Shown: positions 4,828 through 31,400 of the stretch, piece after piece
Position numbering within the stretch: position 1 is the stretch's first letter
Layout of the letters: every line of letters starts with the position of its first letter
Assembly (NCBI GenBank): GCA_964500725.1
Contig: CAZCNP010000001.1
Coordinates: forward strand, 321,520-385,519
DNA length: 64,000 bases
Direction of reading: 5' to 3'
Origin: an uncultured Gammaproteobacteria bacterium
Lineage (GTDB): Bacteria; Patescibacteriota; Microgenomatia; Daviesbacterales; UBA10151
Notes under the pieces: generated by a model
What the model was told of the DNA's origin: nothing
The model's input: only the letters and a program-made list of their open reading frames with translations
Databases searched by the model: none
Made by a program: the position numbers and the translations under genes

Positions 4828-7800
4828 ATGGTTAGCCCTAAAAAAACCTTTTTGGCTGTTGTAAGTCTTTTATTGGTTGTTATTTCTGTATTTCCTCAAC
4901 CTCTTTTTGCCTCCCAAAAACAATATTTTGACTATGGCCCTTACTATTCTACCTCTCAAGTCTTAGGTTTTTCCTTCTCCTCTTTAGAAAACCTGCCTGC
5001 TTTAAAAGTTCCTGATAATTTAATACCAGCAAAAGCCAGCGGTGTTTTGCCAGACAGTCCTTTTTATTTTTTTGAGAAAGTTGCTGAAAATACCCAACTA
5101 ACATTTACCTTTGATCCAGTTAAAAAAGAACAATTAAGAGTAAGTTTTGCTGCCGAAAGATTAACTGAAGCTAAAACTCTGATGGACCAAGGTAAAACAG
5201 GTCCAGCTTCCCAAGCTTTAAATGATTACAGCAGGACTTTAGATACACTTGCTCAAAACCTGCCAGCAATTGCCCAAAGAAATGATCCAGCCTCTCAGCA
5301 GTTACTGACTCAGGTAGAAAAAGTTACTGCTGATCAAGCGGTGGCAGCTACTGCCTTAAGTTTGACTTCCTCCCCTGCTCAAGCTGAAAACTGGACTGAG
5401 GCCCAAAATACTGCCAGGCAGGTCTTGGATAAAATTACTGAAAGCAAAGGCGAGAGCGCTATTCCACAAGATTTATCAACAAGCCTTCAGCAACTCAAAG
5501 AGCAGGGTTTAATCTCAGAAGAAGAAAGCGGTAAAATATACAGCTTAAAAAACCGCGGCGAGGTCCGGGAAGAATTAAACAAGTTAGCTTCCTCAGGAGG
5601 CATTCCTCCTTCAGAACTCCTTAAGCTAGATACATCTGTAGCTAAATACTACCCAGATGTTCAAAAACAGGAAATTGCTAATTGGCAGATAGTAGAACTT
5701 AGAAGTTATCAATCTTTACCACAACCTACTGAAGAAATTATAGAGCAGCTGGAAAAATGGCAAAATCAATCAAATATCCCCCCATCAAATGATATCAAAC
5801 CATATCTTTGGTATACTAGAGCTTCTGATTTAGCTCAAAAAGTAGACTTATCAAACTTTACCTCTGAGCAGCAAACTGAAGCAGTCAAGTCTTACCCTGC
5901 TATTGCTGCCAACCCTACCTATTCACCTCCTCCCAGCCCTACACCCACTCCTTCTCCTTCACCAGCAGCTGATAATACATCTCCAGTGCCTTCAGCCACA
6001 CCTTTATCCTCAGCTCCCCCAGCATCTCCGCCTCCTGTCCCGGTTGAACCATATTTGGAAGAAACCGTTGGAGCTTTGCCTGGCCAACCTACCTATATAT
6101 TAAAGCAGCTAGGTGAAGGTTTCAGTCTAGCTTTCACTTTTGATCCTGCTGAAAAAGCCAGGCTGCAAATGCAAGTGGCTGAACGCCGTCTAGCTGAAGC
6201 TGAAGCACTCTCCAGCGATCCTAAAAAAGCTAGTCTTTATGAGGCTACCCTGAAAAATTATCAACAGGCAGTAAATACTGCCTCAACTTTTGTTAAAGAA
6301 TTGAAGGATCCCAAAATTGCCAAACAGGCAGCAGAAAGGCTGGAATCCCAGTCTGCCAGGCATGAGGTAGTTTTTGAAAAAGGACTCCTGCCTGCCCCGG
6401 CTGAAAATCCCAATCTAATTTCAGATGTTATTAATGCTGCTGAAGATGCCATGGACAGAAGCGCTGATGTTTTGGATCGTCCTGCCTTGCCGCCGCAACT
6501 TGCATCCAGATTAGGCGATCTGAAAGCTCAGGGGTTGATTTTAGAAGAAGAAGCTGCAGATTTAGTCAAATCTGCTACTAGAGAAGAAGCGCGCAGTAAA
6601 ATCAGAAAACTGTTAGAAGCCCAAACTTTTCCTCTGGCTGATGCTAAAAAGCTGGATGAGGCCCAAAGTTTTGTCAACTCAACTGACTACAATCAACTAG
6701 TAGAGGTTAGAAAAGTTGAGGAACTGCAAAACTTAAGATCAGTACAAACAGATCTGGCCCAAACTCCCACACTCAAATCTCAAGCTACCAACTTAGCCCA
6801 AAAAGAAGCAGTTTTAACTAGCTCTTTTGATCCTGCCCTTATCAATAAAGAAGATCTGGCTGGCAAAGAGAACTTAGTTAAAACTTATGAAAAACTCTCA
6901 TCAATCCCCCGTCCGATTAACGGCGGACAGTTTGGGTCCGAGGCTACTCCAGGGGCCAAACCCGCAGCTACCCCCTTACCCCAAGATGCAGTTTTAACAG
7001 CTTGCCCTGAAGGTGCTGTTTTCAAGCAATATGAAGGCTGTGTGTGGGCTGACAGCGGTAAAAAGCTCAACGACTATGATCAGTACAAATGCGAAGGCCC
7101 CAGGCAGTATTATTCTTTTGCTGTAAGAAAATGTGTGGCTTATGATTCCTCTCAAGGCTATCAACAAGATGCCCAGCCTGTTTGTCCTGTAGGTTATCAA
7201 TGGAGTTGGCAAAATCAAAGCTGTCAAACTTCAACTGGAGGTATTTTACCTTGGCCCAGCCCTTCAGCCCAACCAGAACCTAAAGACGAAAAAGAAATAG
7301 AAGAAAGATCAAAAAGCTGTCCTGAAGGCTCTTCCTACAAACCTCCCCAGGGCTGTGTTTGGGATGATGATGGCAAATCAGTTTATGATTCTGAGCAGTA
7401 TCGCTGCAACGGACGTGGTCAATATTACTCTTTTGAACAAGGAAAATGTGTAGCTGCTCCTAAAGAGGGAGAGCCATATCCCAAAGATACCTCCCCTGCT
7501 TGTAAAGAACCTGACACTTATTGGAATTGGTCCCAAGGCAAATGTGTTAAAACTGTTGAGGCAGTCGCCGCTACTCCGCAAGCTATTAATATTGATGAAG
7601 TTAGGCCAAATTTTGCCACCCCTGGTAATCCTTTCTATTTCCTAAAACAAGCTGCTGAAAGAGTGCAAGAATTTACCGCCTTTACTCCTGAGGCTAGAGA
7701 ACAAGTCCGCGCATCTCAAGCCAAAGAAAGACTGGCTGAGGCTATTGATGCTTCAAAAAGAGAAGATGAAACAGGGATTAAAAATGCTTTATCCGCCTAT

Positions 7801-12323: not shown

Positions 12324-12404
12324 GTGAGCACTAAAGTTAAGTCTCACTGAGGCAATCGGACTGAAAAGTTCAAAACGATGTCCTCGCTTAAGCGAGGATT
12401 TTTA
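12324..12404 (+). promoter_or_regulatory. rplJ leader: two hairpins, the second sequestering the GAGG Shine-Dalgarno immediately 5' of the start codon (putative L10/L12 autoregulatory leader)
   Basis: GTGAG(N14)CTCAC at 12324..12347. TCCTCGC-TTAA-GCGAGGA at 12381..12398 followed by TTTTTA, then ATG at 12405. Confidence 0.35.
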
Positions 12405-12911
12405 ATGGCTAAAACTAGACAACAAAAAGAAGAAACAGTAATACAGCTTCAGGAAAAAATAGCTAAAGCAAAAGCTTTGGTATTTGCAGACTATAAAGGT
12501 TTGAGTATGAAACATCTCTCTGACCTAAGAAATAGCCTTAGAGAGGTAAATAGCGAACTTGCTGTTACTAAAAATACCCTTCTCAAAAAAGCCTTACCAG
12601 AAGCTAATGCAGAAGGCCCAACTGCTACCCTATTTGCTTATGATGATGAAATCTCCCCTATTAAAATTTTAGTTAAAGCTTTAAAAGATGCTGCTATTGG
12701 TAAAGTAAAAGGCGGCTTTTTAGGCAGTTCCCCTTTAGATGAGGCAAAAGTTTTACAACTTGCAACTTTACCTACTAAAGATGAGCTAAGAGGCAAAACT
12801 GTTGGGGTTTTAGTTGCTCCTCTGCAAGGCATTGTTTCAGTTCTGCAAGGAAACTTAAGAAACTTAGTATATGCACTTTCCGAAATCAAAAAAGTGAAGG
12901 GAGGTGTTTAA
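12405..12911 (+). CDS. rplJ: 50S ribosomal protein L10
   Basis: MAKTRQQKEETVIQLQEKIAKAKALVFADYKGLSMKHLSDLR... is a typical L10 N-terminus. The ORF-track start at 12378 lies inside the leader hairpin; the ATG at 12405 is preferred. Confidence 0.85.
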   Translation: MAKTRQQKEETVIQLQEKIAKAKALVFADYKGLSMKHLSDLRNSLREVNSELAVTKNTLLKKALPEANAEGPTATLFAYDDEISPIKILVKALKDAAIGKVKGGFLGSSPLDEAKVLQLATLPTKDELRGKTVGVLVAPLQGIVSVLQGNLRNLVYALSEIKKVKGGV

Positions 12912-12914: not shown

Positions 12915-13421
12915 ATGGCAGACGATCAAACAAAAACAGAAGAAGTAAAAGCCGAAGAAGCAGTAGAGGAAGTTAAAGAAGTTGTACAAGAAGCAAAAGC
13001 TGAGGAAGCTCCTAAAAAAGAATCCAAGGCAGTTTCAGCTAATTTAGAAAAAATCATAGAAACAGTAGAGAAATTAACTGTTTTAGAACTGGCTGATTTA
13101 GTACATGCTTTAGAAGACAGATTTGGTGTTTCAGCCTCAGCCCCAGTAGCTATAGCAGCAGCCGGGAACGGTGGCGCAGTAGCTGCAGGTGAACCAGCTG
13201 AAGAGAAAACTACCTTTAATGTTATCTTAGCAGGAGCAGGAGCAAACAAAATTGCAGTTATTAAAGCTGTAAGAGAACTCGTTCAAACCTTAGGCTTAAA
13301 AGAGGCTAAAGATTTGGTAGAGGCAGCTCCAAAACCAGTTTTAGAAGGTGTTAATAAGGCAACAGCTGAAGAAGCTAAAGCAAAACTCACAGCAGCAGGA
13401 GCAACAGTTGAGCTTCAGTAA
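12915..13421 (+). CDS. rplL: 50S ribosomal protein L7/L12 with an unusually long acidic N-terminal extension
   Basis: C-terminal domain [57 protein letters not shown] is canonical L12 CTD. About 40 extra N-terminal residues rich in E/K/A. Confidence 0.85.
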
Positions 13422-13500: not shown

Positions 13501-13531
13501 TTGACACTGTCTGTTTTGTTATGATATATAA
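13501..13531 (+). promoter_or_regulatory. Sigma70-like promoter TTGACA-N17-ATATAT(AAT); transcript would be near-leaderless
   Basis: ttgaca at 13501..13506; TGaTATATAAT extended -10 at about 13521..13531; ATG at 13541. Confidence 0.45.
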
Positions 13532-13540
13532 TGAGTCAGA

Positions 13541-13777
13541 ATGGCTGACAAGATATCACTCGAGAGTCTCCCCGATTTATTAACAGTCAAAGAAGTTGCA
13601 GAAATTTTGCGTGTATCTCCCTTAACTATTAAACGCTGGGGCAAAAGAGGAAAACTCCCAGCAATAAGAATTAACTCCAGAGGAGATAGAAGATATAAAA
13701 AAGAGGCTGTTTTATGGTTATTAGGCATCACCCAAAAAACATCTTCATCTGACTCTTCACAAGTAAGTTCTTATTAA
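13541..13777 (+). CDS. Small MerR/excisionase-family helix-turn-helix DNA-binding protein
   Basis: LTVKEVAEILRVSPLTIKRWGKRGKLPAIRINSRGDRRYKKEAV is an excisionase/MerR-type HTH. It is paralogous to the N-terminus of the giant ORF at 16417. Confidence 0.6.
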   Translation: MADKISLESLPDLLTVKEVAEILRVSPLTIKRWGKRGKLPAIRINSRGDRRYKKEAVLWLLGITQKTSSSDSSQVSSY

Positions 13778-13804
13778 GAATTCCACAAAAAAAATATTAG
13801 AAAA

Positions 13805-13833
13805 GCAGCAAAGCCACAACTGTGGCAAGCTGC
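13805..13833. terminator. Nested perfect hairpin between convergent genes; T-run on the minus-strand side, so likely the terminator for the 13902 gene
   Basis: GCAGC-aaa-GCCACA-act-TGTGGC-aa-GCTGC. The reverse complement is followed by ttttctaatatttttttt. Confidence 0.4.
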
Positions 13834-13901
13834 ATTATTAGCACTCAGTTCAGATAAATTGCTAATTGGGTTTGAATATGTTGTCAGAGAGCCAAAAAGG
13901 G

Positions 13902-14408
13902 TTACTCTGTAGCAATTTGGGGATGAACCTGATAGTTAGGATTTTGCTCAAAGACAATTTCCCCTTTTTTCTCTACTACATAATAAGCAAGGCCTCTTTT
14001 TTCTATTATTGGCTGAGCAACCTGATATTTTTTATCCAAAACTATATTGGCCAAAACCACCAAAAAATTATTGCCAGTATTAACAAGACACATTCCCCAT
14101 CCTGCAGGCACTGAAAAACTTTTTAAAGGATTTAAAACCATCACTTTAAATTCTTTAGCATCTCCTAGCTGATCATTTCTTTGCAGCAGTAAAATTCCAG
14201 ACCCATATAAGCACTGAAATGTTTGTACTCCAGGGAAATTACTGACAAACCCTTCAGTTTTATTAAACTCTACACCATTTCTACCAGCAGAAACTACAAA
14301 AATTGTTTGGTTTTTATCTTCTATCTGGTAGTAAGGAGTTTTTACTCCCTTTACTTTTGGTTCCATCAGCACTGGCTTTAAATCCTGAGCTGTCTTTTCA
14401 GTAACCAT
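13902..14408 (-). CDS. Cupin-type phosphoglucose-isomerase (cPGI)-like protein lacking the metal-binding histidines
   Basis: GSGILLLQ...GDAKEF...VPAGWGMCLVNTGNNFLVVLAN...EKRGLAYYVVEKKGEIVFEQNPNY aligns to the archaeal cupin PGI core (GKGGMLLQ...GDAKW...VPPYWAHRTVNIGDEPFIFLA). The GHxH and WAHR His positions read GRNG and WGMC here. This comparison is from memory of the family, not a search. Confidence 0.4.
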   Translation of the reverse strand: MVTEKTAQDLKPVLMEPKVKGVKTPYYQIEDKNQTIFVVSAGRNGVEFNKTEGFVSNFPGVQTFQCLYGSGILLLQRNDQLGDAKEFKVMVLNPLKSFSVPAGWGMCLVNTGNNFLVVLANIVLDKKYQVAQPIIEKRGLAYYVVEKKGEIVFEQNPNYQVHPQIATE

Positions 14409-14428
14409 AGTATTTCTAGCTTAACATA

Positions 14429-15124
14429 TTATCTTTTAGCAAGTAAAAGGAGGTAGTTTATAAGCGCAAATTGCCTCTTTACCCTCCAAGGCTGCATCAC
14501 CAACCTAAACAACCACTCCAATCCTAAACTCCTGACCCATTTAGGGGCTCTTGGGATACTGCCTGAAAGATAATCAAATGCTCCTCCTACTCCCATACTA
14601 ACATGGGCAGGAATTTTAGCCAAATTATCAGCAATCCATTTTTCCTGCTTTATATGCCCAAAAGCAACAAAAAGAATATCCAGAGGAGGAACAGTTAAAT
14701 TAGCAGTTGTCTTCCCCTCTTTATTAACATCTCCACCTGAGTTAATAAAGTTTACTTTTAACCCTGGGTACTTTTTCTTTAAGCGCTCAACTGTCCTCTC
14801 TGCTACCCCTTCTTTACCTCCTAAAAAACCTATTACAAAGCCTTTTTCTGCAGATAGCTTAATTAATTCTTCCATAAAATCAGTCCCAGAAATAGTGTTT
14901 TTTACACTACCAGACAGTCTTAAACCAGCTCCATCAGGAATAGATAAATCTGCATCATTTAATATCTTCTTAAAATGTGAATCTTTTTGCGCTGACACAA
15001 TAAATTCTGGATTAGGAGTAACAATATAATATTTACCAGGAGCTATTATCCACTTCTCCACTTGGGCCAAACCCTCATCCATACTAACATCATCAATTTT
15101 AACTCCTAGAACTTTAACTTTCAT
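14429..15124 (-). CDS. WecB/TagA/CpsF-family glycosyltransferase (N-acetylmannosaminyltransferase-like)
   Basis: MKVKVLGVKIDDVSMDEGLAQVEKWI...YIVTPNPEFIV...DADLSIPDGAGL; family-typical N-terminus and length. Confidence 0.75.
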   Translation of the reverse strand: MKVKVLGVKIDDVSMDEGLAQVEKWIIAPGKYYIVTPNPEFIVSAQKDSHFKKILNDADLSIPDGAGLRLSGSVKNTISGTDFMEELIKLSAEKGFVIGFLGGKEGVAERTVERLKKKYPGLKVNFINSGGDVNKEGKTTANLTVPPLDILFVAFGHIKQEKWIADNLAKIPAHVSMGVGGAFDYLSGSIPRAPKWVRSLGLEWLFRLVMQPWRVKRQFALINYLLLLAKR

Positions 15125-15131
15125 ATACCTT

Positions 15132-16253
15132 CTATACTGCTTTTTCTAAAACAGCAAGTGTTTCTTTGGCGCATTTTTCCCAACTAAATCTTTTAACGTT
15201 TTCAAATCCCTCTTTTATTTTTTCCATTCTCAATTTTCCATCGTCAACTTTCCTCATTCCCTCTACTATATCATTAATTTTATAGGGGTTTACATAGATT
15301 GCCCCTTTCCCAGCTATCTCAGGCATACTGGAAAGATTGGAGGTAATCACAAGACATCCGCAAGCTTGAGCCTCAATAATAGGCAAACCAAACCCTTCAA
15401 AAAGGGATGGAAAAATTAGGGCAGCTGCGCCACTATAAAAAACAGGTAGTTTTTCGTCTGGCACATACCCTAAAAATTTAACTCTATCTTCTACCCCTAA
15501 TTTCTTAGGTAATTGGTAAATGTCATCACTAAGCCAACCTTTAGAACCAATTATAACTAACTTTTTAGAAAAGGTTGGAGATATCAATTTACTAAAGGCA
15601 GAAATTACCCTCTCCAAATTTTTCCTTGGTTGAACAGTTCCCACAAATAAAAAATATCCTCCAGGTTCAAGACCATACTGCCTCAAACTATAAACTAATG
15701 TATCACTCCTAACTGGCTTAAACAAACTTTTATCATACCCTTCATAAACTGTCTGAATTTTAGCTGGGTCAATCCCTTCTCTATCAATTAGATCTATTTT
15801 GGTAGCTTTTGATACAGTTATGATTTTTGTGGCTTTTTGCAGTTGATACCTTTGCATAAACCCCAGATAAAGCCTTTGTTTTAACTGATGCATTGAAGGC
15901 AGGTACTGCGACCCTAAATCATGAACAGTTACCACAGTTTTAAGTCCTGGTTTAATAATTACTGGCAAGGTGTGGGCAGGAACAAACAAGAGATCTAAAT
16001 TGTCCCTAAAAGTCTGCAAAGACAAACCTGCTTGTGTCCATAACCTTTGAAAAGGAATTTCCTTAAACTGGAATTTTTTTGACCAAGAAGAACCTTGCAA
16101 ATCCCCTCTTCGCCTGCTTTGAGGACGTAAATAAATTATATATTTATTTTTTTGATCAATCTTAGATAGGGCTCTTAAAAGCTGGTAAGAATAGTTTTCT
16201 GTGCCAGTCCGCCAGCTGGCGAATGCCCTGGATCCATCAATACCAATCACCAT
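15132..16253 (-). CDS. GT4 (group 1) glycosyltransferase
   Basis: C-terminal EGFGLPIIEAQACGCLVITSNLSSMPEIAG (EX7E-type GT-B motif). Confidence 0.75.
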   Translation of the reverse strand: MVIGIDGSRAFASWRTGTENYSYQLLRALSKIDQKNKYIIYLRPQSRRRGDLQGSSWSKKFQFKEIPFQRLWTQAGLSLQTFRDNLDLLFVPAHTLPVIIKPGLKTVVTVHDLGSQYLPSMHQLKQRLYLGFMQRYQLQKATKIITVSKATKIDLIDREGIDPAKIQTVYEGYDKSLFKPVRSDTLVYSLRQYGLEPGGYFLFVGTVQPRKNLERVISAFSKLISPTFSKKLVIIGSKGWLSDDIYQLPKKLGVEDRVKFLGYVPDEKLPVFYSGAAALIFPSLFEGFGLPIIEAQACGCLVITSNLSSMPEIAGKGAIYVNPYKINDIVEGMRKVDDGKLRMEKIKEGFENVKRFSWEKCAKETLAVLEKAV

Positions 16254-16285
16254 AGTTTAAGTATATCTCAAGTCTTATTATATAT

Positions 16286-16362
16286 GTTGACGTGTTTTAT
16301 TATATATGATACTGTAAAAATAATACTGCATATATGCATGCATAGGTGGGTGCATATATGCA
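16286..16362 (+). promoter_or_regulatory. Divergent promoter region with two copies of the palindrome TGCATATATGCA (putative operator) upstream of the giant ORF
   Basis: ttgacg at 16286..16291. Palindromic 12-mers at 16327..16338 and 16351..16362, centres 24 bp apart. Confidence 0.4.
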
Positions 16363-16416
16363 AAGCCGTAAAAGAGCAATTTAGGAATAAAAACGGCAGC
16401 AGACGGACGGATTTAA

Positions 16417-19400
16417 ATGTTAAAAGTTAATTCGTCCAAAAAATCACTTGTTAAAATTGCCCAAGCCTCCAAGTTATTAGGCGTCCACAAAGATACTTTA
16501 AGAAGATGGGAAAAAGCTGGCAAAATTAAAGTAGTCCGAGACCAAAAAGGAGACAGGCTTTATGATGTTTCTAAACTAATTAACTCAGCTCCTGCTTCTC
16601 AAACCTCCAAGGTGCCTACAACTGAGCAGCTGTTAAAGTCAGCTTCCCAACACGCTCAACAATCCACCTTACAACCTCAGCTACCAGCTTTAGATTACTC
16701 TGCTTTGTTAGATCAAACTATATCAAAGGATAACAAGCAAACAGGCAGAAGGTTTTATTTTATGGCTGCAGGCTTCTTCCTGCTCTTAGTGCTGATAGGC
16801 TTAGGTTATATTAGAGTTTTATCTACTCAATCCAAACCACAAATAATTACTTCTTTGGAAAACAAGATACTGGCAGCTATCACCTCTCAACCTTTAGTTA
16901 AGATAAATGCTGATGTCAAAGTAAGAGGGTCATTATCTGTATCAAACGATATCAATGGGCTGGCGATTGCCACTGATTCAGCAGGCTTTACCTTAACTTC
17001 TGAAAATGGCAAATTAACTGTGGTTGGCGATGCCTTGTTAAACCAAGACTTATCTTCCAGCGGCTCCCCTACTTTTTCTTCTCTAAATTTATCCTCAACC
17101 AGCAATCAGCTAGTCTTTCAATCAGGCGGACCAGCAGGCACCTTAACCTGGACTCCAACTGCTGCAAGAACTATTACCCTGCCAGACACCACTACTACTT
17201 TAGTTGGAAAAGATACCACCGATACTTTTACTAACAAATCCATTTCTGGGTCTTCTAACACTTTTACCAATATCCCCAACTCTGCTCTAACAAATAAAAA
17301 AATAACTGTTACAGCTGGAACTAATTTAACCGGCGGAGGAGATGTAGAACTTGGTTCATCAATTACTTTGAGTTTAAAAGAATCCCCTACTTTCTCCGGT
17401 GTAGTCTTACTTTCTGATGGCACAGCTGCTGCCCCAGGCTTAGCTTTCAGCAATGATACTAATACAGGTTTATATAGAATTGGTACAGATAAAATTGCCC
17501 TGATCACAGGAGGATTAGCTACCTCAGGGATTACCATTGATTCTTCTGGCAATTTAGGAATAGCCAATAATTCTCCAGCATATAAATTAGATGTAACAGG
17601 CACTGCCAATATTACCAGCAATACTACTATTGGTGGAACTCTGGGAGTAACAGGTATCTCTACTTTTTCATCAACTATGGGGGTGTCGTCAGGATTATCT
17701 GTAGGTAGTACCTATTCTTCTCTGTCACCACCAACCAGCGGTGCCATTATAGAAGGAAATGTCGGTATCGGAACCAGCGCCCCTGGTTCTTTTGCGTTAA
17801 ATGTAAGCGGCAATACTTACCTTAACGGGAGGCTAGAAACTTCAGGTAATGTTGGTATAGCTAATTCTGCTCCATCTTTTACTTTGGATGTAGTAGGTAC
17901 TGGCAGATTTTCTTCTTTACTTAATGTCTTAGGTAATATAGGTATTGGTACCTCTGGTGCAGCAGGATCAGCCCTGCAGGTTAATGGTGGAGGATTATTT
18001 GGCTGGGGAACAACTTCTACTGCTTTATCTTCTGGAGCTATCTTAGGAGTTAATGGAAATGTAGGAGTTGGGACTACTTCCCCTCTGGCTAACCTGCATG
18101 TTGTTGGACAATGTGTTGTTGGGGAAACAAAACTTAAAAGAAGAAGGAGAAAGAAGGGCAAAAATGGTGAGTGGTCAGATGAATATGAAGATGTAGAGAT
18201 TAAGGATATCAAGGAAGGGGATGAGATACTAACACTTGATGAAAGTACCGGCAGATTTGTACCTGCTAAAGTTAACGCCCTCAAAGATATGGGGATCAAA
18301 GAAATCTTTGAGTTGACCACTGCTACCGGAAAAACCATCAGGACCACCGGCAACCATCCCTACCTGGCACTTGGCGTAGAACACCTAGCCCTCACTAGTC
18401 ATGATTCGGCATCAGGTGTTACCGGTGCTTCCTTGCTCAACTCTACCATTTTATCTCTCACAAGAGGGAACAAAGACCACCGGATCGCCGTCTTTATCGA
18501 TGCGGCAAACCTTGAAAAATCCGTTGAGAAAATAGGCTTCAAAGTCCACTATAAAAACCTTAAACGCCTAATTGCTTCTTTAGGTTCTCTTGACTATATT
18601 GGTTATTTTACAGTAGCTACTTCTTCAGAACAGAATGTGACTCTTCGCCAGTCTCTGCTGCGCTTTGGTTATAACGTGGTTACCAAACCTCTAAAACTTA
18701 TTAAAACCGCCAAAGGCCTGAAACCCAAGGCTGATGTTGATGTAGAGATTACCACCGAAGTAATGGAACGCAAAGATGACTTTGATCTGATGATTCTCTT
18801 TTCAGGAGACAGCGATTTTTACTATCCAATTAAGCTCTTACAAGAAAAGTATGGAAAGAAAGTAATAGTTATCTCTACCAGATACAGTGTCTCCAGGGAA
18901 CTACTCAAAGTTGCTGACCGTTACATTGATATTGCCAAGCTTAAAGGGGAAATTGCCAGAGGGCAAAAAGAAAGCCCGTCTTTTGCAACGGGCGACTCAT
19001 CTTTCGACGAGAGCAATCTTACGACTGCACTTCAAACTATATCAGATATCCTGCCTTTTGTCAAGAATTTGGGCAAATGGACTAAGGTGTCAGGGCTAAA
19101 GACCGGCCAGATGATAGCTGCAGTAGGGAAAGACAACCAACCTCAGTTTGAAAAAATTGCCTCTATTAAGAAGGTTAAACGCGAGCAGGTCTTTGATATA
19201 GAAGTAGAAGGCACCCATAACTTTGTAGGCAATGATATAGTAGCTCATAATACTTTTATTACAGGTAATGTTGGGATTGGGGCTGCTTTTACCACCTCAG
19301 GTATAGTTACCCCCACTAATGGTTTAGCTGTCCAGGGTAATGTAGGTATAGGAACTTCTACCACCAATGCTGCCTTAACAGTAATAGGTGGGATAACAAC

Positions 19401-22400
19401 TACTGGCAATGTTGGTATTTCAAACTCTGCCCCATCATTTACTTTGGATGTAGTAGGCACTGGCAGATTTTCTTCTGATCTAACTGTTTCTGGAACTACC
19501 TTCTCTGCCTCATCAGCTGCTGGATCATTTGATTCCTTAACAGTAGGAGGAGGTTATGGATCAACAGGAGTATCAATCTCCAATGCTGGAGTAATCCAGG
19601 CTAATGGAGCTTTAACTGCTGATGGACTGATTACTGGTTCAACAGGTTTAACTATTACTGGAGGTGTAGTTTCTTTGAATGCTTCCTCAAATAATGCTGT
19701 CAATATAAACACAGGATCATCTACAGGTGCTTTAACATTAGGAGGAGGATCTGGAACTGTGGAAGTGGCTTCCACCAGCTGGGATATTTCTACTTTAGGA
19801 GCTATCTCTGGTGTCACTGGTATTACTACCTCAGGAGGATATACCCAATCTGGTACTTCCGAGAACCTCTTTACTGGTAATGTGGGTATAGGAGTATCTG
19901 CTACAGGAGCTAAACTTTCTTTAAATGGCGGAGCATATATCTGGCCAATTACAACTAATATTGCTGCTCCTAATAACGGATTAGCTGTTTATGGTAGAGT
20001 GGGCATTGGTACTACCTCCCCCGCAACCAATCTCCACTTGATTGATACTTCTGGCAACACTGAGATAGCCAGGTTTACCTCCACGACCAACTCTAAGGAC
20101 TCCTATGTTCAGTTCAATACTACTTCTTCCACTTCTTCTATGGGATTGCAACTTTCTAGCACTGCTGCTAACTCAGTAGGTATGAGAATTGATGGCTCAG
20201 GAAACTTATCTTTCCATACAGGTGCAGCCAGCAGCTCAGTTATGGCTAATAATAATAAAAAGATGACTATTGATACCAATGGGAATGTGGGTATAGGCAG
20301 CAGTGCCAGCAATGGTATTAGCGCAATTCAACTTTTCCAGGTTAATGGAACCTCCTCCTCCCCATTTGTAGTTACTTCAGCTGGTAATGTTGGTATAGCT
20401 AATTCTGCCCCATCTTTTACTTTGGATGTAGTAGGTACTGGCAGGTTTTCTTCTTTACTGAATGTTTTAGGAAATGTGGGGATAGGAACATCAGGAGTAG
20501 CAGGATCAGCCCTGCAGGTTAATGGTGGAGGATTATTTGGCTGGGGAACAACTTCTACTGCTTTATCTTCTGGAGCTATCTTAGGAGTTAATGGAAATGT
20601 AGGAGTTGGGACTACTTCCCCTCTGGCTAACCTGCATGTTGTTGGACAATGTGTTGTTGGGGAAACAAAACTGAAAAGAAGAAGGAGGAAAAAAGGCAAA
20701 AATGGCAAGTGGATTGATGAATGGGAAGAGGTGGAAATCAAGGATATTAAAGAAGGCGATGAGATACTTTCCTTAAACGAGAGTACTGGTGAGTTTATTC
20801 CCAGAAAAGTTAAGGGGCTTTTGGGTATGGGAATGCAGGAGGTGTATGAAATCTTAACCGAAGAAGGTAAAACCATCCAAACCACCAAAAACCATCCTTA
20901 CCTGGTAGACCTCTCTGAAACAGCAGGTACAGCGCTTCATTTTATTCAAAAAGCCACTTTTGAATATAGCGAGAGATTAGGAAAAGAGTTTTATATTGAT
21001 CATCTTGCAGGCAAGAAAATAAAATCAAAAGCATTAAATGACACTATCAACTTTACTCATACAGGCTGGAACCACTTTACAGAAAAAAGCAGATCAATCA
21101 ATGAATTGATTACCAGATTTTTTGCTCTTCCCTATGCTATTACAGTTCTATCTCAAGCCAGCAAAGTAAAAATTCATGAGGAAAGAAAGAAACCAGATAT
21201 GGTAGTGGAATACTGGATTTTTGAAGAAATTATCGAGTATGCGTTAATCCGGGTAGTAATTTCTGCTGTGAATCATGGCCCTAAGTTTTTCTTGTCTTGT
21301 TCCTGGCTGGGGACACAGGCAGAAGGAGGAATTTTAGCCAACAAAAAAGAGCTGTCTCTCTCGCAGGCAGTTACTCCTGGTCGACGTCGGGAACTGGTTA
21401 TCCCTCAGCTCTTTACTAAGCTGTTTATACCAAAAAATGTCAAAAATGTCAAGTGGGTTGAGGTTAGAAACTTAACAGTTGGGGCTAGTATCGCCACTAT
21501 TTCAGGTTGGGAAAAGATAGTTTCCATCAAAAATATGGGTAGAAAATCTACTTTTGATATAGAGGTAGCAGGGACTCATAATTTTCTAGGCAATAATATA
21601 GTTGCCCATAATACTTTCATTACAGGTAATGTTGGTATAGGAGCTGCTTTTACCACCTCAGGTATAGTTACCCCTGCTGATGGTTTAGCAGTCCAGGGCA
21701 ATGTAGGTATAGGGACAACTACTACCAATGCTGCTTTAACAGTGATAGGAGGAATAACCAGTACTGGTAATGTGGGTATTGCTAACTCTGCTCCATCATA
21801 TACTTTGGATGTAATAGGTACTGGCAGATTCTCTTCTACTCTGCTAGCTAATACCTTCTCCTCCTCAGAGGTAACCATCACTGGTGGAACCATCAATAAC
21901 ACCAGTATTGGAGCAACTGTAACCTCAACTGGCGCTTTTACTACTCTTTCTGCCTCTGGAGCTTTGGCTGCCAATGGTGGGATTACCTTTGATAATGCTA
22001 CTGATACATTAGGAGCTTTTACTGCTGCTGGAACTATCAATATGAATGGCAATATTATTACCAATATAGGGGCAACAGATACCAGCTTTGCCACCACTGG
22101 AGCCTTAGCCATTACCTTAGATGGAGCTGATGCCAGTGGCGCTCTCTCTGTTTCCAATGCCTCTCAAACCTCAGATATCTTTGTGGCCAAAGATAACACT
22201 ACTGCTGTGTTTACCATTAAAGATGGAGGCAATGTTGGGATAGGCTTTACCTCTCCTTCAGCTTTGCTTCATCTCAGACAAACAGGATCAGGTAATGCTT
22301 TCTATGTAGAAGATCAGGCAGATGATACTTCTTCTCCTTTTGTGATCAATGCTGATGGTAATGTTGGTATAGCTAACTCTGCTCCATCATATACCTTGGA

Positions 22401-25400
22401 TGTAGTAGGAACTGGAAGAATATCTTCTGATCTGGTAGTAAATGGCACTACTTTCTCTGCCTCATCAGCTGCTGGATCATTTGATTCCTTAACAGTAGGA
22501 GGAGGTTATGGATCAACAGGAGTATCAATCTCCAATGCTGGAGTAATCCAGGCTAATGGAGCTTTAACTGCTGATGGACTGATTACTGGTTCAACAGGTT
22601 TAACTATTACTGGAGGTGTAGTTTCTTTGAATGCTTCCTCAAATAATGCTGTCAATATAAACACAGGATCATCTACAGGTGCTTTAACATTAGGAGGAGG
22701 ATCTGGAACTGTGGAAGTGGCTTCCACCAGCTGGGATATTTCTACTTTAGGAGCTATCTCTGGTGTCACTGGTATTACTACCTCAGGAGGATATACCCAA
22801 TCTGGTACTTCCGAGAACCTCTTTACTGGTAATGTGGGTATAGGAGTATCTGCTACAGGAGCTAAACTAGCCATTAATGGTGGAGCATATATCTGGCCTA
22901 CTACCACAGCTATCTCTGCTCCCAATGATGGGCTGGCTGTATATGGTAATGTTGGTATAGGAACTACTACACCTTTAGCTAACTTACATGTTGTAGGACA
23001 ATGTGTAACTGGAGATACCAGACTGAGAAGAAGGAAGAAAAAGAAGAATGGTGAGTGGTCAGATGAATATGAAGATATAGAGATTAAAGATATCCAAGCA
23101 GGAGACCAGATACTGTCCTTAAATGAAAAGACAGGGCAATTTGAACCTCACACTGTTCTCGCCCTAAAAGATATGGGAATCCACCAAACTTTTGAGTTGA
23201 TTACTGCCTCCAGGAAATCAATCAGAACAACAGCTAATCATCCATACCTTATTAAACAACAAAAAACCCGCCTTTCAGCGAGTTCTTTGACTGAGTTTAA
23301 TGCTGATGCACTATACTCGGGTCTGAGTATCAATACTCTACCACAAAATACCAATAATGTCAAGTCTATGACTGCACGAAGTGGAACTAATGTGGACCTG
23401 ACGGGAATTGAACCCGCAAACCCAGATTTCTCAGACCCGAGCGTACACCAGTACCAGGCCCACATAAAATTATTATCTCATAAATGGATTAAAGTTTCAG
23501 GGCTTAAACCAGGCATGGAAATAGCTACTATTAATGGATGGGAAAAAATAGCAGCTATTAAAAAATTTGCCAGAGAACAGGTTTTTGATATAGAAGTTGA
23601 AGGAACACATAACTTTGTAGGCAATGATATAGTTGCCCATAATACTTTTATTACAGGTAATGTTGGGATTGGGGCTGCTTTTACCACCTCAGGTATAGTT
23701 ACCCCCACTAATGGATTAGCAGTCCAGGGTAATGTTGGTATTGGGACAACTACTACTACTAATGCCTTAACTGTTGCAGGTAATGTTAATACTACTGGTA
23801 ATTTAGGAGTTGGAACATCAGCTACAGGAGGATATAACTTAACAGTACAGGGTACTACCAGTATTACTGGAGCTGCCACTTTTGGATCTACTGGTACCTT
23901 TGCCTCTACCTTAACAGCTTCCAATGGCTTAACTTTAACAACTGGAGCTTTAAATCTAACCTCTACCTCAGGACAGGCTAATCTAGCTCTAACCAATAAC
24001 ACCAACACCTTCACTGTTAATGGATTATTTGGGATAGACACTACCAATAACAGAGTTGGTATTGGAACCACTGCCCCCTCTGCAGCAAGGCTTGAAGTTA
24101 TTGGAGCAGGATCCGTGACAGGACGCACCTTCTGGGTTACTGGATCAAATCTTTCCTCAGGCCTGGCAGTACTGGATAATGGTAACGTGGGTATTGGTAT
24201 TAGTGGACCAACTGCCAGTTTGGATATTGTGGGAACCTCATATACTACTGCCTTAGATCAATCTCAAACAAGTACTAATGGATTTTATAGCTCCAGTATA
24301 CAAGCGCAATCTTTCACCCCTTCTGTTACCGGCCCTTTCATGTATGCTGATATAAAAATCCAATCAGGAGGAGGAGCTCCAGGCAATACCGCTCTTACCC
24401 TCCGCTCAGGAGAAGATGTTTCAGGTACAGTTTTGGCTACTTCAACCAGTGTTGCCAGTTTAGGCAGTGGTTGGTATCGGATTACTTTTGACAATACCCC
24501 TACTTTAACTGCCGGACAGCAATACACCATCCGCTATGATAGAACAAGTACAAACGACTGGGGAATACAAGGTGCTAATCCCTATTCTGGAGGAAGATTC
24601 TATGGCTTAGGAGCTTGGAAAACCGATGATGGTGCCTTTAAAACTTATGTCTATACAACAGATACTACACTGGCAGATGCAGTTAAAATGGCTAATAATT
24701 ACACCTCGGCAAACAGCGGGGCTGTTTTAAACATTACCACAGCTGGAATAGCTGGAAGCTATGCCTTAAGAGTTAACGATGACGGTACATTTACCGATAC
24801 CTCCCCCTTTGTTATTGATACTACTGGTAATGTTGGTATAGCTAACTCTGCTCCATCATATACCTTGGATGTAGTAGGAACTGGAAGAATATCTTCTGAT
24901 CTGGTAGTAAATGGCACTACTTTCTCTGCCTCATCAGCTGCTGGATCATTTGATTCCTTAACAGTAGGAGGAGGTTATGGATCAACAGGAGTATCAATCT
25001 CCAATGCTGGAGTAATCCAGGCTAATGGAGCTTTAACTGCTGATGGACTGATTACTGGTTCAACAGGTTTAACTATTACTGGAGGTGTAGTTTCTTTGAA
25101 TGCTTCCTCAAATAATGCTGTCAATATAAACACAGGATCATCTACAGGTGCTTTAACATTAGGAGGAGGATCTGGAACTGTGGAAGTGGCTTCCACCAGC
25201 TGGGATATTTCTACTTTAGGAGCTATCTCTGGTGTGACTACTTTGAATATGTCAGGCGCCATCACTGCTGCTACTGCCTCCAATACCATCAATGGTTTAA
25301 TTATTAACTCTGGAGCATTATCTGGTGTCACTGGTATTACTACCTCAGGAGGATATACCCAATCTGGTACTTCCGAGAACCTCTTTACTGGTAATGTGGG

Positions 25401-28400
25401 TATAGGAGTATCTGCTACAGGAGCTAAACTTTCTTTAAATGGCGGAGCATATATCTGGCCAATTACAACTAATATTGCTGCTCCTGATAATGGCTTGGCT
25501 GTATATGGCAATGTGGGTATTGGTACTACTACTACCAATGCTGCTTTAACAGTGATAGGAGGAATAACCAGTACTGGTAATGTGGGTATTGCTAACTCTG
25601 CTCCATCATATACTTTGGATGTAATAGGTACTGGCAGATTCTCTTCTACTCTGCTAGCTAATACCTTCTCATCATCAGATGTAACAATCACAGGAGGAAC
25701 TATTAATGACACTACTATTGGAGCAACTATTACCTCAACTGGAGCTTTTACCACTTTAACTTCATCAGGTAATACCACCTTGGGTACAGGAGCATCATCT
25801 GTCAATACCATTGGTTCAACCACTACTCCAGGAACTCTAACCCTGCATGGAGCCACTACTTTGGACAATACCTTCACTGTTTCAGGAGCCAATCTCACTT
25901 CTTTGGGTGGGAACTTATCTTTTACTGGCACTGCTCCATCTTTAACTTCTGGATCATCAGTACTAGGAATATTTGCTGGAGGTAATGTAGGAATTGGGAC
26001 TACTTCTGCCATGGCCTCCTCTTTTAATGTTAATGGCAATCAGGTTATTGGTTCATCTTTCATTGGAGGTGCTGCCCCCACTAATGGATTAGCAGTCCAG
26101 GGTAATGTTGGTATTGGGACAACTACTACTACTAATGCCTTAACTGTTGCAGGTAATGTTAATACTACTGGTAATTTAGGAGTTGGAACATCAGCTACAG
26201 GAGGATATAACTTAACAGTACAGGGTACTACCAGTATTACTGGAGCTGCCACTTTTGGATCTACTGGTACCTTTGCCTCTACCTTAACAGCTTCCAATGG
26301 CTTAACTTTAACAACTGGAGCTTTAAATCTAACCTCTACCTCAGGACAGGCTAATCTAGCTCTAACCAATAACACCAACACCTTCACTGTTAATGGATTA
26401 TTTGGGATAGACACTACCAATAACAGAGTTGGTATTGGAACCACTGCCCCCTCTGCAGCAAGGCTTGAAGTTATTGGAGCAGGATCCGTGACAGGACGCA
26501 CCTTCTGGGTTACTGGATCAAATCTTTCCTCAGGCCTGGCAGTACTGGATAATGGTAACGTGGGTATTGGTATTAGTGGACCAACTGCCAGTTTGGATAT
26601 TGTGGGAACCTCATATACTACTGCCTTAGATCAATCTCAAACAAGTACTAATGGATTTTATAGCTCCAGTATACAAGCGCAATCTTTCACCCCTTCTGTT
26701 ACCGGCCCTTTCATGTATGCTGATATAAAAATCCAATCAGGAGGAGGAGCTCCAGGCAATACCGCTCTTACCCTCCGCTCAGGAGAAGATGTTTCAGGTA
26801 CAGTTTTGGCTACTTCAACCAGTGTTGCCAGTTTAGGCAGTGGTTGGTATCGGATTACTTTTGACAATACCCCTACTTTAACTGCCGGACAGCAATACAC
26901 CATCCGCTATGATAGAACAAGTACAAACGACTGGGGAATACAAGGTGCTAATCCCTATTCTGGAGGAAGATTCTATGGCTTAGGAGCTTGGAAAACCGAT
27001 GATGGTGCCTTTAAAACTTATGTCTATACAACAGATACTACACTGGCAGATGCAGTTAAAATGGCTAATAATTACACCTCGGCAAACAGCGGGGCTGTTT
27101 TAAACATTACCACAGCTGGAATAGCTGGAAGCTATGCCTTAAGAGTTAACGATGACGGTACATTTACCGATACCTCCCCCTTTGTTATTGATACTACTGG
27201 TAATGTTGGTATAGCTAACTCTGCTCCATCATATACCTTGGATGTAGTAGGAACTGGAAGAATATCTTCTAATCTAACAATAGGTGGATCATTAACTTCT
27301 ACTGGTAACCTACTTCCTTCAGCTGATGATACTTATGATTTAGGTTCTTCTTCTGCCAGATGGCAAGATCTCTATGTTGGCCCCACATCCTTAAATCTAG
27401 TTTGTACTGCAGGAGAATGTGGTACAGCCAGAACTTGGAATATTGGTGTTCAGGAATCTTCTGGAGTAGCAGCTGCCCAAGGTAATTTAAGGATTGGGCT
27501 TTCTTCCAGTAGAGACTTTCTCAATATTAACACCTCTGGAAATTTAGGAATTGGGACCAGTAATCCAGGAAACCTTTTGACTGTTTCAGGAGGCAATATT
27601 GAAATTTCCAGCGCTTCTCCACAGTTGATTTGGACAGACACCACAGCTGGTCAGGATGCTTTTGGAGCTATAGCCAACAGCGATTACTTAGAATTTATGT
27701 CCGGAGGCACCAGAAATATTTTAGTCTTGGCTGGTGCAACCCACGCAAATGCAGGTAATGTGGGGATTGGAACAGCAACTCCTGCCTTTAAACTGGATGT
27801 TAATGGTGGCATCAATTCAGGTACATCTGCTGGATATTCTGTTGGATCGTGGCTTGGTATGTCTTATGCAGCAAATGGAGCAAGTTATAACTTAAACTTA
27901 GGTGGTATTAATGCCTCTACCTGGGTGGGACTAGGTCTTTTCACTTCTGGCACAGAAAAGGTCAGAATCGATACAAATGGCGCACTATATTCAGGCAATA
28001 TTGGTACCTCTATTGCTAATGCTAATTTATTTGTCTCAGGGGCTACCTCTGGAAATGTTGGTATCGGCACTACAACTCCAAATACCAGACTGGATGTTAT
28101 AGGTAATGGGACTTATGCTGCTGATTTCATGAATGGAAGTGTGGGAATTGGAACTAGCAGCCCTCAAGCTACCCTTCATGTAGCTTCTGCCTTTACTGCA
28201 GTTTCAGATACTGGCAGCACTGGTGGTAACTTAATTATTCAAGGAACTGATACTACCAGGGATCCAACTCATGGGGCTGCTTTAAGCTTCTATCTTCCAG
28301 CTACTACAGCAGGAGGAAATCCTTATGTTCAAGCCAGAATTATAGGAGCACCAGATAATAGTTCTAATAATAATACTTCTGGAAGATTAATTTTCCAGAC

Positions 28401-31400
28401 TAGAAATAATACCAGCGCCTCTTTCAATAATGCCATGATGATAGATTCAAATGGAAATGTTGGCATTGGCACAACTGGGCCTAATGCTAAACTGGATGTG
28501 ATTGGTGGAATCAGGGTTACTAATACGAGCAGCACCAATGCTCTTGTGTTTGGTCTTGCAAATAGCAATCATTACCTCAAGCTCTACGCAGATACAGACA
28601 CTGGTATCAGCTACATTAAGAACTTATCTAACTATGATATTAGACTGGGACATGCAAGCAGTGATGATGTAATAATCAACTCTGCTGGTAATGTAGGTAT
28701 AGCAAACTCTGCTCCAAGTTATACCCTGGATGTTATAGGTACAGGCAGATTCTCTTCTGACCTTACTGTTGGAGGAAACTTAACTGTCTCTGGCACTACT
28801 TTTTCTGCCTCAGGAGCTGCAGGATCTTTTGATTCTTTAACAGTTGGTGGAGGTTATGGATCAACTGGAGTAACTATTTCCAATGCTGGGGTAATCCAAG
28901 CCAATGGGACTTTAACTGTTGATTCTACCTCTACTTTAACAGGAGCTGTCAGTATTGGAGCTTCCAATGCTGCTTTAACATTTACTGGTACTACTCCATC
29001 AATCACTTCTGGTTCCTCTGTCTTTGGAATCTTTGCTGGGGGGAATGTGGGAATAGGGACCACCTCTACCATGGGGTCAACTTTGAATGTTTCAGGTAAT
29101 CAGGTTATTGGTTCATCTTTCATTGGTGGAGCTGCTCCACAAAATGGATTAGGGATTCAGGGTAATGTTGGTATAGGCACTACTACTGCTACCTCTTATA
29201 ATCTTCAAGTTGTAGGGACTATTGGTTCAACCAGTGGTATTACTATAGATGCTGGAGCAGGCAGCTCTAATGCAACTCTTACTCTCGCAGGAAGAAATTC
29301 TGGGACAGCCCATTCTGCTTCTGTTTTCTCCAATTTTAACGGAGGCCTTAATCTAAAACCAGCCACAACTGGCAGTGATATTAATGTCTATCTTTGGAAT
29401 AATGCCACAGCTTCTACCTCCAATACCATGCCTTTAAACTTTGATTTAAATGCTACCACAGATGGTAAAACTACTTTTGCTCAAATCATGGGTCTTTCTA
29501 CTGATATTACCTCGGGAGCTGCCTCTGGAGCTTTATCTTTCTACACCAAAAATACTGGATCCTTGAAGGAAAGAATGAGGATAGATCTAAACGGTAACGT
29601 TGGTATTGGTACTTCTGCTCCATTTACTGCATTAACAGGAGCCTTCCAAGTAGCACCAGTTTCTGCCCCTGCTGCTTTCTTTGTAGGAAGTACAGGTAAT
29701 GTTGGGATAGGGACTACTGCCCCTACTAACAACTTATCAGTTATAGGCAATGTTAATACCACTGGTAATTTGGGAGTAGGGACATCTGCCACAGGTGGAT
29801 ATAACCTAACAGTAAATGGAACTGCTAGAATCTCAGGAAATATAGGTATAGGTGGTACTGCTACCTTCAGTAATCCAACTATCTTTAACAATGGTATTAC
29901 CAATAATGGAGTCTTTTCTCAGACAGGACAATTCCTAGCAGGAGATGGATCAGCTGCAGCTCCTTCGTATTCCTTCACCAGTTCCACTGGAGCAGGCCTC
30001 TGGTCACCATCTTCTAACAATATTGCCCTAACTACTGGAACTCCTACTACAACTGGTACCATTAAAGGAATCTCTGTTGATTCCTCTGGTAATGTAGGAA
30101 TTGGGACTTCTAATCCAGCAGGGCTTTTGGACATTGTTAAATTAGGAAATGATAACCCAATCTATATAGATCGATATAGTACAAACAATGGCCATGTTCC
30201 CACAATCCAATTCCGCACCAGCCAACAAAACAGTCTAGGCAACACTGCCACCACTATTAGCAACATGTATGGAAGACTTGAATGGTATGGGAATGATGGT
30301 AACGGCTTCCAAAGGGCTGCCTATATTCAAGCACAGCAGGGTTCAAGTACTGCAACTGATGCTGACTTAACAATATCTACAGGTGCAAGCGGAACAATTT
30401 TCATGGAAGGGAGTTCTGGCAATGTTGGTATTAACAATGCTGCTCCTGTGGCTAAATTACATTTAACAGGAGCTGGGATTACCACTGGAGTTAACTTCCT
30501 CTCCACAGGAGCTGGTGGAGGTGGAGGTCTAGTAGGTATTTTAGATAATGGCAATGTTGGAATAGGGACAACTGCACCAGGACAGAAACTGGATGTGGTT
30601 GGTACTATTAAATTTGGTTCCGGGGGTTATTACTCTTTGGGCACAGATCCTACCCGACTGGAAATAAGAAATGCCGCCAACGATTCCATCGCTCTTTATA
30701 CGAACGGTACGCGCGGCTTACTTATGACTGGGTCTCAAAAAGTCACAGTTGGAGGAGATATTTCTGGTGGTAATAGTTTATTCAATGTTCAAGGTGGTAC
30801 AGCAATTGGGTCAAGTTATTACCTGGCGACAGCTCCTACCAACGGCCTATTAGTTGAAGGTAATGTTGGTATTGGTACCACCAGCCCGATCACTAAATTA
30901 GATGTTAGCGGTGGAGTTGGAGACACTTCATCTACTGATCCTCAATTCTCTCTTTCCAGATGGTCTTCAACTGGTAATAACGAAGTAGTCAAATTTAGAT
31001 TAATGGAGCAAGCTTCAGGTGGCACTAACTTTGGGGTATTTACCATCCAAACCAAGAGTACAGCCTCTGCAGCAGAAAGCGATAGTTACTACACTAATGC
31101 TTTCTCAATCACTGCAGCTGGAAATGTTGGTATTGGTACCACTGGACCAGCTGTTAAGCTTGATGTTGTTGGTGGAGGAAACTATGTTGACGGTTTGAGA
31201 TTAAGATATTCTGCCTTAACTAACGGATGGAACTTTGCTCAGGGGACTGGCGGACAACTTTATTTTGGTTATGGCTCTGCTGCTTCACCAACAACCATGA
31301 TGCTGATAGATACCAATGGCAATGTTGGTATTAATAATGCTGCTCCTGTGGCTAAACTTCATTTAACTGGAGCAGGAACAACTACTGGGGTTAATTTCCT

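Follow-up and report, generated by a model that had tools for sequence, protein, structure and literature searches.

We analysed a 64-kb stretch of a contig of Candidatus Daviesbacteria, a member of the Candidate Phyla Radiation (CPR)/Patescibacteria; this stretch, assigned by the names of identical database proteins, is called the window below. It encodes a giant protein of 5984 amino acids (aa) (16417..34371, + strand) that combines an N-terminal helix-turn-helix (HTH) domain, a linker, a single transmembrane (TM) helix and a repetitive extracellular part with inteins. Comparison of its promoter with those of related genes leads us to favour, with moderate confidence, an autoregulated gene whose product would bind an array of TATGCA-core sites through its own membrane-tethered N-terminal HTH. 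One hallmark of CPR/Patescibacteria is the possession of giant surface proteins, which are encoded by costly genes and thought to mediate host attachment; few recognisable regulators are found in these bacteria. An earlier model-made reading of the window (the sequence-only reading) had drawn attention to two palindromes in front of the giant gene. We find that they are real, non-random and partly conserved, and that they are a local palindromic variant of a family-wide operator array.

An array of TATGCA-core sites in the promoters of giant genes

The 163-bp region between the giant gene and the divergent GT4 glycosyltransferase gene (16254-16416) contains two exact copies of the palindrome TGCATATATGCA at 16327-16338 and 16351-16362, 24 bp apart from centre to centre, and every coordinate that the sequence-only reading gave for this region is correct. 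The search for other copies that it had proposed found none in the 64-kb window, and no exact copy arose in 100 dinucleotide-preserving shuffles (mean 0, largest 0). Relaxed matches with 2-3 mismatches occur in the window at or below chance level and lie inside genes. Palindrome 1 (16327..16338) consists of the hexamers TGCATA then TATGCA. It is overlapped by a third palindrome, TATGCATGCATA (16333..16344), which completes an 18-nt block, TGCATATATGCATGCATA, and bridges the two copies of TGCATATATGCA. Palindromes 1 and 2 (16351..16362 for the latter) are also mutually complementary and give a perfect 13-bp hairpin (16327-16339 with 16350-16362). A putative promoter of the giant gene precedes them on the + strand (16287..16315), with a -35 element TTGACG (16287-92), a 17-nt spacer and a -10 element TACTGT (16310-15). 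It can be aligned to TTGACA-N17-TACTTT in the closest related locus, L080, and to the invariant TTGACA-N18-TACGAT of the class A loci described below. Two copies of the 15-nt direct repeat GTyTTATTATATATG, 22 nt apart (16272..16308, + strand), contain partial sites ATATATG, one 5' of the -35 (16280-86) and the other in the spacer, adjoining the -10 (16302-08).

To collect related loci we used a profile of the 400 N-terminal aa, which retrieved about 45 loci of the same layout (an N-terminal winged HTH, one TM helix and a giant part) in genomes of other Daviesbacteria and Microgenomates. In all, about 50 related genes have this layout, and in nearly all of them TATGCA-core 10-mers are clustered at fixed, helically phased positions of the promoter and 5' leader. 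In the 250 nt preceding the window gene and the genes of 41 fetched loci (42 family genes in all), nnnnTATG[CT]A sites are enriched 23-fold (15.2 vs 0.65 per kb). The exact palindrome TGCATATATGCA is absent upstream of the first 41 related genes, and outside the window it was found among the fetched loci only in L080, which was added later. The conserved unit is therefore the TATGCA-core site and not the 12-mer.

The distribution of the clusters is narrow. The 870 kb of fetched DNA yielded 38 clusters with three or more sites. Of these, 35 immediately precede genes with a TLRRWE-type HTH, 2 are inside such genes and 1 stands before a degenerate copy. As clusters are found only at the promoters of genes encoding this HTH, autoregulation by the giant's HTH is the best explanation for them, and the autoregulation suggested by the sequence-only reading gains comparative support for the giant's own domain.

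The most regular arrangement is that of the class A loci, which follow the scheme TAATAATAACCC-TTGACA-AATCTATGTA-AATCTATGTA(CGAT)-GGATTAAG-AATCTATGCA-(12-13 nt)-TGCATAGATT-...-GCAGACGGA-...-ATG. The -35 element TTGACA is invariant, and the 18-nt spacer is made up of two direct 10-mers, the second of which overlaps the -10 element TACGAT. A third copy and then an inverted fourth follow downstream of the -10. Counted from the -35, the sites are at almost fixed positions, +6, +16 and +38 on the + strand and +60/61 on the - strand, so that consecutive sites are about one or two helical turns apart. In a few loci (L015, L021, L028, L034 and L041) an inverted partner is found 5' of the -35. The window and L080 share the class A promoter skeleton. 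In the window, the TGCATA hexamer of palindrome 2 takes the place of the inverted +60/61 site, and the distance from the TATGCA of the preceding site to the TGCATA hexamer of the next is 18 nt, as in class A. The spacer copy of ATATATG (16302-08), kept in L080 as TAATATATGT, is equivalent to the class A +16 site. A dimer seated on a palindrome, as first proposed, does not agree with this family pattern of 10-bp repeats, which are mostly direct (+6/+16/+38), with an inverted one at +60/61.

A tblastn search with the neighbouring genes identified positional orthologs, in which the neighbourhood of the small HTH gene, WecG and GT4 faces the HTH gene (L036, L037, L039, L040, L069, L080, L087 and L134); in L046 this neighbourhood is rearranged. 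Most of these syntenic loci belong to a second class, class B, whose HTH reads VSKDTLRRWE and whose 10-mer is ACCTTATGCA or WTATGCA within the same skeleton (TTGACA-AACCTTATGCA-ACCTTGTGCATAAT...). Their downstream copies are usually direct and not inverted. L080 is the closest relative of the window: the order of its genes agrees from L10 to MreB, and its HTH likewise reads VHKDTLRRWE. Its promoter aligns to that of the window as TTGACA-N17-TACTTT-10 nt-TGCATATATGCATGCATATAG. It keeps the 18-nt block TGCATATATGCATGCATA, identical to 16327-16344 of the window, with the exact 12-mer (4920-4931) at the same promoter position as palindrome 1, and lacks the second palindrome. The conserved item is accordingly the TATGCA/TGCATA block, and the 13-bp hairpin is not conserved.

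The sequence-only reading had extended the regulation to the divergent glycosyltransferase genes. Such co-regulation is not conserved and not supported: L080 has no site on the GT4 side and no counterpart of the window's 16280 site 5' of the -35, and the intergenic regions between GT4 and the HTH gene in class B are 270-800 bp or more.

Several observations were made on individual family members. The degenerate member L019 (3910-4100) retains its operator cluster and the GCAGACGGA box and is missing the first half of the HTH-coding region; its reading frame begins within ...KRGKITPVRSEGGTRLY. The HTH gene of L080 (5001-7209) codes for only 290 aa, with HTHs in tandem, a TM helix and an external part of about 80 residues. 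It is followed by genes matching the window from 41156 onward, including MreB, and about 24 kb of the window (the body of the giant, the PDDEXK gene and the LamG gene) are absent there, through either a natural deletion or an assembly collapse. The class A 10-mer AAATCTATGCA also occurs inside coding regions, just 5' of the part coding for the TM helix (L010 4339-4372, L017 4612-4645, L038 4466-4486, L011 507-548 and L031 4253-4291). There it forms 12-nt tandem repeats, such as KIYAKIYAKIYA, always read as (K/N/E/Q)-I-Y-A, which may be a peptide motif or additional DNA sites; they have no counterpart in the window gene. A metagenome scan with the KDTLRRWE pattern returned mostly IS607-like transposases and unrelated HTH proteins, the only family members being L082, L084/86, L087 and L134.

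The N-terminal domain of the giant protein and its match to the sites

Pfam MerR matches aa 13-50 of the giant open reading frame (ORF) (E 1.6e-11). The AlphaFold model contains a winged HTH at aa 11-57 (coding region 16447..16587, + strand) with a pLDDT of about 95, followed by a low-confidence linker. The single TM helix (aa 109-136; coding region 16741..16824, + strand) is a helix in the same model and a hydrophobic segment conserved across homologues. The best Foldseek matches of the HTH are the BldC-DNA complexes 6AMK/6AMA (rmsd 1.6-2.2 Å), and the next are Mycobacteriophage Xis, MerR proteins and RacA. BldC is also the best PDB match by sequence, at E 3e-6, when the HTH family profile is used; the profile was needed, as a single-sequence PDB search with the giant's HTH gave no match. 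BldC of Streptomyces is a 68-aa MerR-like protein without a coiled coil that binds 9-bp direct repeats head-to-tail via Arg30 and Lys36 (PMC5859096; PDB entries 6AMK/6AMA). In the giant family, numbered in the same way, R30 never varies and K36 is kept in at least 90%.

In sequence, the giant's HTH comes closest to the N-terminal domain of IS607-family TnpA (48% identity, E 7e-15). The transposase domain binds a set of four 9-bp direct repeats, helically phased and contained in about 60 bp, near the left end of the element and just upstream of its own gene (PMC6188088). The best NCBIfam match of the giant's N-terminus is the IS607 transposase model (NF033518), to model positions 2-79, with 31.6 bits against a cut-off of 110. 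The HTH part alone matches, and the giant is not a member of the IS607-family transposases; no serine-recombinase or resolvase domain was found in the 5000 aa scanned. The BldC model (NF033787) gives 20 bits, below its cut-off of 77, and the HTH has the BldC fold without being a stand-alone domain. The C-terminal coiled coil or effector region of classical MerR proteins is missing, and the linker and TM helix follow the HTH. The resulting order, an N-terminal DNA-binding domain, one TM helix (109-136) and a large C-terminal part, is a prediction and would resemble that of ToxR/CadC-type regulators; we infer its orientation, with the HTH in the cytoplasm, solely from the missing signal peptide. 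Tandem HTH domains before the TM helix (first 100-130 codons) were seen in L010, L017, L038, L039, L040 and L080; the window protein has one.

The bases flanking the core fall into classes, AATC-, ACCT- and CATA-TATGCA, which vary in step with HTH residue 25. At the start of the recognition helix, residues 24-26 are S-I/V/Q-D in class A, with the site AATCTATGYA; S-K-D in class B, with ACCTTATGCA or WTATGCA; and H-K-D in the window and L080, with CATATATGCA. The base before TATGCA is C in 37/37 loci with I, V or Q and A or T in 11/11 loci with K (Fisher 4e-11, not corrected for phylogeny). Classes A and B occur together in one metagenome-assembled genome (L039 and L058) and, at a distance of about 8 kb, on a single contig (L040 and L060), indicating that one cell holds at least two HTH/site pairs. 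On the simplest reading, each giant gene is controlled by the HTH that it encodes.

A DNA site or an RNA element

We asked whether the element might instead work as RNA, the 13-bp stem-loop near the 5' end of an 18-kb mRNA stabilising it or controlling translation, with the DNA symmetry as a by-product. We regard this as possible and rather unlikely. The predicted leader fold containing the hairpin has a minimum free energy (MFE) of -28.6 kcal/mol (z -3.7), to which the hairpin contributes, and in class A an inverted repeat of 10-12 bp occupies the corresponding position, 92.6% of its cells being paired. This repeat was tested for covariation over its ten core pairs in an alignment of 18 class A leaders. 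Six pairs never vary; in the other 4 the changes comprise 8 uncompensated and 0 compensated ones, and covariation is not above that in shuffles (51 of 500). With no compensated change and no excess over shuffles, RNA pairing is not what is conserved; the arms are conserved in sequence. The second arm is missing in L080, class B orthologs have direct copies, and the 10-mer is found again in the -35/-10 spacer, which is not transcribed, as well as 5' of the -35 in some loci. Rfam 15 gave no match at the gathering score in the window, nor any at E up to 1 in 16200-16520 of the window or 3780-4060 of L013. Comparison of these leaders thus favours recognition of the inverted repeat as DNA by a protein over RNA pairing. 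DNA and RNA roles are compatible, and the hairpin could add stability to the 18-kb transcript.

A different hairpin in the same leader, at the start codon, clearly looks like a second element, acting at the RNA level; its covarying stems speak for RNA-level control of this leader. A conserved box, GCAGACGGA (16399..16407, + strand), lies 9 nt before the ATG in the window and 8-67 nt upstream of it in most family loci; it also appears as GCAGACGG(A), shortly 5' of the ATG. The 3' part of the box pairs with codons 3-6, placing the AUG in the loop of a predicted RNA hairpin (16405..16437, + strand; arms GGACGGATT at 16405-13 and AATTCGTCC at 16429-37). The stems differ across loci and stay paired: CAGACGG/CCGTCTG, GACGAAG/CTTCGTC, GGACAAAC/GTTTGTCC, GGACAAGTTT/AAACTTGTCC and GGACTATTT/AGATAGTCC. 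A stem of at least 7 bp is found in 60% of loci vs 22% at random ATGs.

The box also precedes an unrelated gene, the 1838-aa DUF5667 gene at 4828 (region 4812-4830). Most window genes have a TATAAT-like hexamer 6-9 nt 5' of the ATG and no Shine-Dalgarno sequence, which suggests that leaderless mRNAs are widespread in this organism; the L7/L12 gene (12915), with GGGAGGTG, is an exception. Given the box before a long-leader DUF5667 gene and the leaderless-looking starts of other genes, the box and hairpin may serve as the translation initiation signal of a few long-leader genes. GCAGACGGA might be a substitute for a Shine-Dalgarno sequence; the window contains no 16S rRNA gene.

The free-standing HTH protein

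The second HTH of the window is a 78-aa protein encoded at 13541..13777 (+ strand), after rplJ-rplL; its translation is as quoted in the sequence-only reading, which had taken it for a paralogous regulator of the giant gene. It matches Pfam HTH_17 and MerR_1 only and has the BldC-type form, a stand-alone MerR-like winged HTH of about 70 aa that ends after the wing, without the C-terminal coiled coil or effector region of classical MerR proteins. A phmmer search of the PDB matched BldC (6AMK/6AMA, E 2e-9), which makes it the best BldC homologue in the window, and R32 and K38 align to Arg30 and Lys36. Its best NCBIfam match is HTH_BldC (NF033787), at 45.1 bits and below the cut-off of 77; both this protein and the giant's HTH are relatives of BldC and not curated members of the family. 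The two share 35% identity over 40 aa (pairwise E 1e-7), and both match Pfam MerR and HTH_17. They are homologous as members of one superfamily, that of MerR-like winged HTHs lacking a coiled coil, and the small protein is not a local paralogue.

If this BldC-like protein bound the sites in trans, the giant's HTH might contact another protein, as the HTH of RodZ does, or anchor DNA. We consider this improbable. The protein is a true BldC homologue, its gene is 2.6 kb away with synteny conserved in class B and window-type loci, and the TATGCA core is as invariant as the protein itself, which is among the most conserved in the region (window, L036, L037, L040, L046, L080 and L087). Against it, the protein is 92-95% identical next to class B loci and L080, whatever the neighbouring motif, while the flanks of the sites differ by class. 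Class A genes lie elsewhere in the genome without a small HTH gene nearby, and the clusters occur only at genes encoding the other HTH. Its own promoter has no TATGCA site. The comparison shows a separately conserved protein of BldC type; it does not support the part of paralogous regulator first proposed and gives no sign that this protein is the binder.

The gene itself is found just 3' of the L10-L7/L12 genes in the window, L080 and L046, and the best 120 of its 6663 database relatives are all at least 83% identical. Its putative promoter (13501..13532, + strand) has TTGACA at 13501-06 and an extended -10, TGaTATATAAT, at 13522-32. Comparison with seven orthologous upstream regions showed conservation of the -35 and the extended -10 and a variable spacer, and from its position the mRNA would be nearly leaderless. 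A spacer common to this promoter and that of the giant gene was considered and dropped, the similarity being limited to the close pair of the window and L080.

Discussion

We propose that the operator array in the promoter and early transcribed region of the giant gene would be bound by the cytoplasmic winged HTH of BldC/IS607-TnpA type that a single helix tethers to the membrane, with one domain per TATGCA-core site. The proposed sites in the window are ATATATG at 16280 and 16302, TGCATATATGCATGCATA at 16327-16344 and TGCATATATGCA at 16351-16362. As they overlap the -35/-10 spacer and the first 50 nt or so after the -10, their occupancy should control initiation of the same gene, and negative feedback would be the more likely direction. 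We infer that this domain, rather than another protein, is the binder. Both known relatives, BldC and IS607 TnpA, bind phased repeat arrays of exactly this kind. Of the cooperative head-to-tail binding known for BldC, the sequences show the site pattern only: 10-bp direct repeats at +6/+16 with further sites 22 nt apart.

Several points weigh against autoregulation by the giant's HTH. The window sites are full palindromes, the second of them lineage-specific, and suit head-to-tail binding of the BldC kind less well than direct repeats. Tethered to the membrane at the end of a protein of 6000 aa, the domain would have a very low copy number. The 13-bp mRNA hairpin will form whatever its origin. 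Distant HTH proteins with K25 (IS607-like) show a mixed base before TATGCA. As promoter and HTH-coding region are adjacent and inherited together, the correlation between HTH and site classes could reflect shared descent from perhaps three lineages and not co-adaptation.

A further elaboration of autoregulation, which we put forward as speculative and think doubtful, would be one-to-one feedback in cis. The nascent N-terminal domain, which emerges first from the ribosome, would bind the promoter of its own, still-transcribed gene copy, and TM insertion would tether the locus to the membrane. Every 6000-aa protein, nascent or finished, would thereby shut off or pace the promoter it came from; paralogues would be insulated by diverged HTH-operator pairs, and the module would have been recruited from the DNA-binding domain of an IS607-type transposase together with its end repeats.

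The weakest alternative, which we consider very improbable, takes the inverted repeats for recombination sites, belonging either to an invertible promoter or to what is left of the end of an IS607-like transposon, with the HTH as an accessory factor in recombination. In its favour, the closest domains to the HTH are those of IS607 TnpA and of Xis type, IS607-like genes carry similar left-end motifs, and a few loci have an inverted partner 5' of the -35, so that repeats flank the promoter. Against it, a recombinase domain is neither fused nor adjacent in the window; in most loci just 12-13 nt separate the repeats, which do not enclose the promoter; and the arrangement keeps its position in about 40 diverged genomes, among which we saw no inverted variants.

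The IS607-like genes L089, L097, L098 and L103 (HTH GVSKDTLRRWE, then YARVSSHDQK) have TATGCA/TGCATA pairs and AATCTA-type repeats in the upstream 150 nt, for example AAATCTACGTAAATCTATAAAAACCTATGCATTTTTGCATAAGATTTT in L089; these resemble the operator array of the giant genes. This hints at a shared origin of the two kinds of array. Unlike the transposase, the giant has no serine-recombinase catalytic domain and no transposon ends, and is a stable chromosomal surface-protein gene with conserved synteny.

Several known regulators can be compared with the giant's HTH and its sites. Shared with BldC are a MerR-like winged HTH without coiled coil or effector domain, promoter site arrays, and the conserved Arg30 and Lys36, which are found in both HTHs of the window. 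However, BldC is a free 68-aa protein, whereas the domain of the giant is joined to a TM helix and 5800 aa of extracellular sequence, and the BldC repeat is AATTxxxx(C) as against a 10-mer with a TATGCA core that is palindromic in the window. Classical MerR proteins (MerR, CueR, SoxR and BmrR) have the same winged-HTH fold, belong to the same Pfam family and use an operator inside the -35/-10 spacer. They differ in possessing a C-terminal dimerisation helix and a sensor domain, and in their single-dyad operator in an overlong spacer of 19-20 bp. In our loci the spacer measures 17 nt (window) or 18 nt (class A) and holds direct repeats instead of one dyad, and the window palindromes lie 3' of the -10. 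ToxR, CadC and TcpP have a cytoplasmic N-terminal DNA-binding domain (predicted in our case), a single TM helix and an extracytoplasmic C-terminal part, and act on transcription directly from the membrane, as is proposed here. Their DNA-binding domain is of the OmpR/PhoB type and not MerR/BldC-like, and their outer part is a small sensor in contrast to a giant, repetitive, fibre-like protein with inteins; the target here is apparently only the protein's own gene.

Membrane-bound one-component regulators and BldC-like repeat binders are thus known kinds, and what would be new is a BldC/IS607-type HTH on a membrane-anchored giant; we found no paper on such a fusion. Promoter sites, a cognate DNA-binding domain built into the product and paralogue-specific site variants together suggest a self-contained control module. 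If this is true, transcription factors tethered to the membrane would have a further, new architecture, and the module would be a natural example of divergence in HTH-operator specificity and possibly of the reuse of a transposase DNA-binding module for gene control. The DNA signature, TTGACA with phased TATGCA 10-mers, is a simple finder of these genes in fragmented metagenomes.

Neighbouring genes and other features of the giant protein

The genes upstream of the giant gene are, in order, those for ribosomal proteins L10 (rplJ, 12378-12911, + strand) and L7/L12 (rplL, 12915-13421, + strand) and the small HTH protein, followed on the - strand by genes for a cupin (13902-14408), a WecG glycosyltransferase (14429-15124) and the GT4 glycosyltransferase (15132..16253), the last three assigned by Pfam. 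On the other side, an ORF for a PD-(D/E)XK nuclease (PDDEXK_3, 34350-34859) overlaps the final 22 nt of the giant ORF, and its own end is overlapped by 34 nt by the gene for a protein of 1683 aa with seven Laminin_G_3 domains (34826-39877). Within the giant ORF, an Intein_splicing match covers aa 588-945 (E 3e-46), with an NYN nuclease domain nested at aa 689-839, and a Hint module lies at aa 1438-1547. Inteins are unusual within an exported giant protein; in the homologues P0011 and P0016 an insertion follows the conserved V-G-Q-C.

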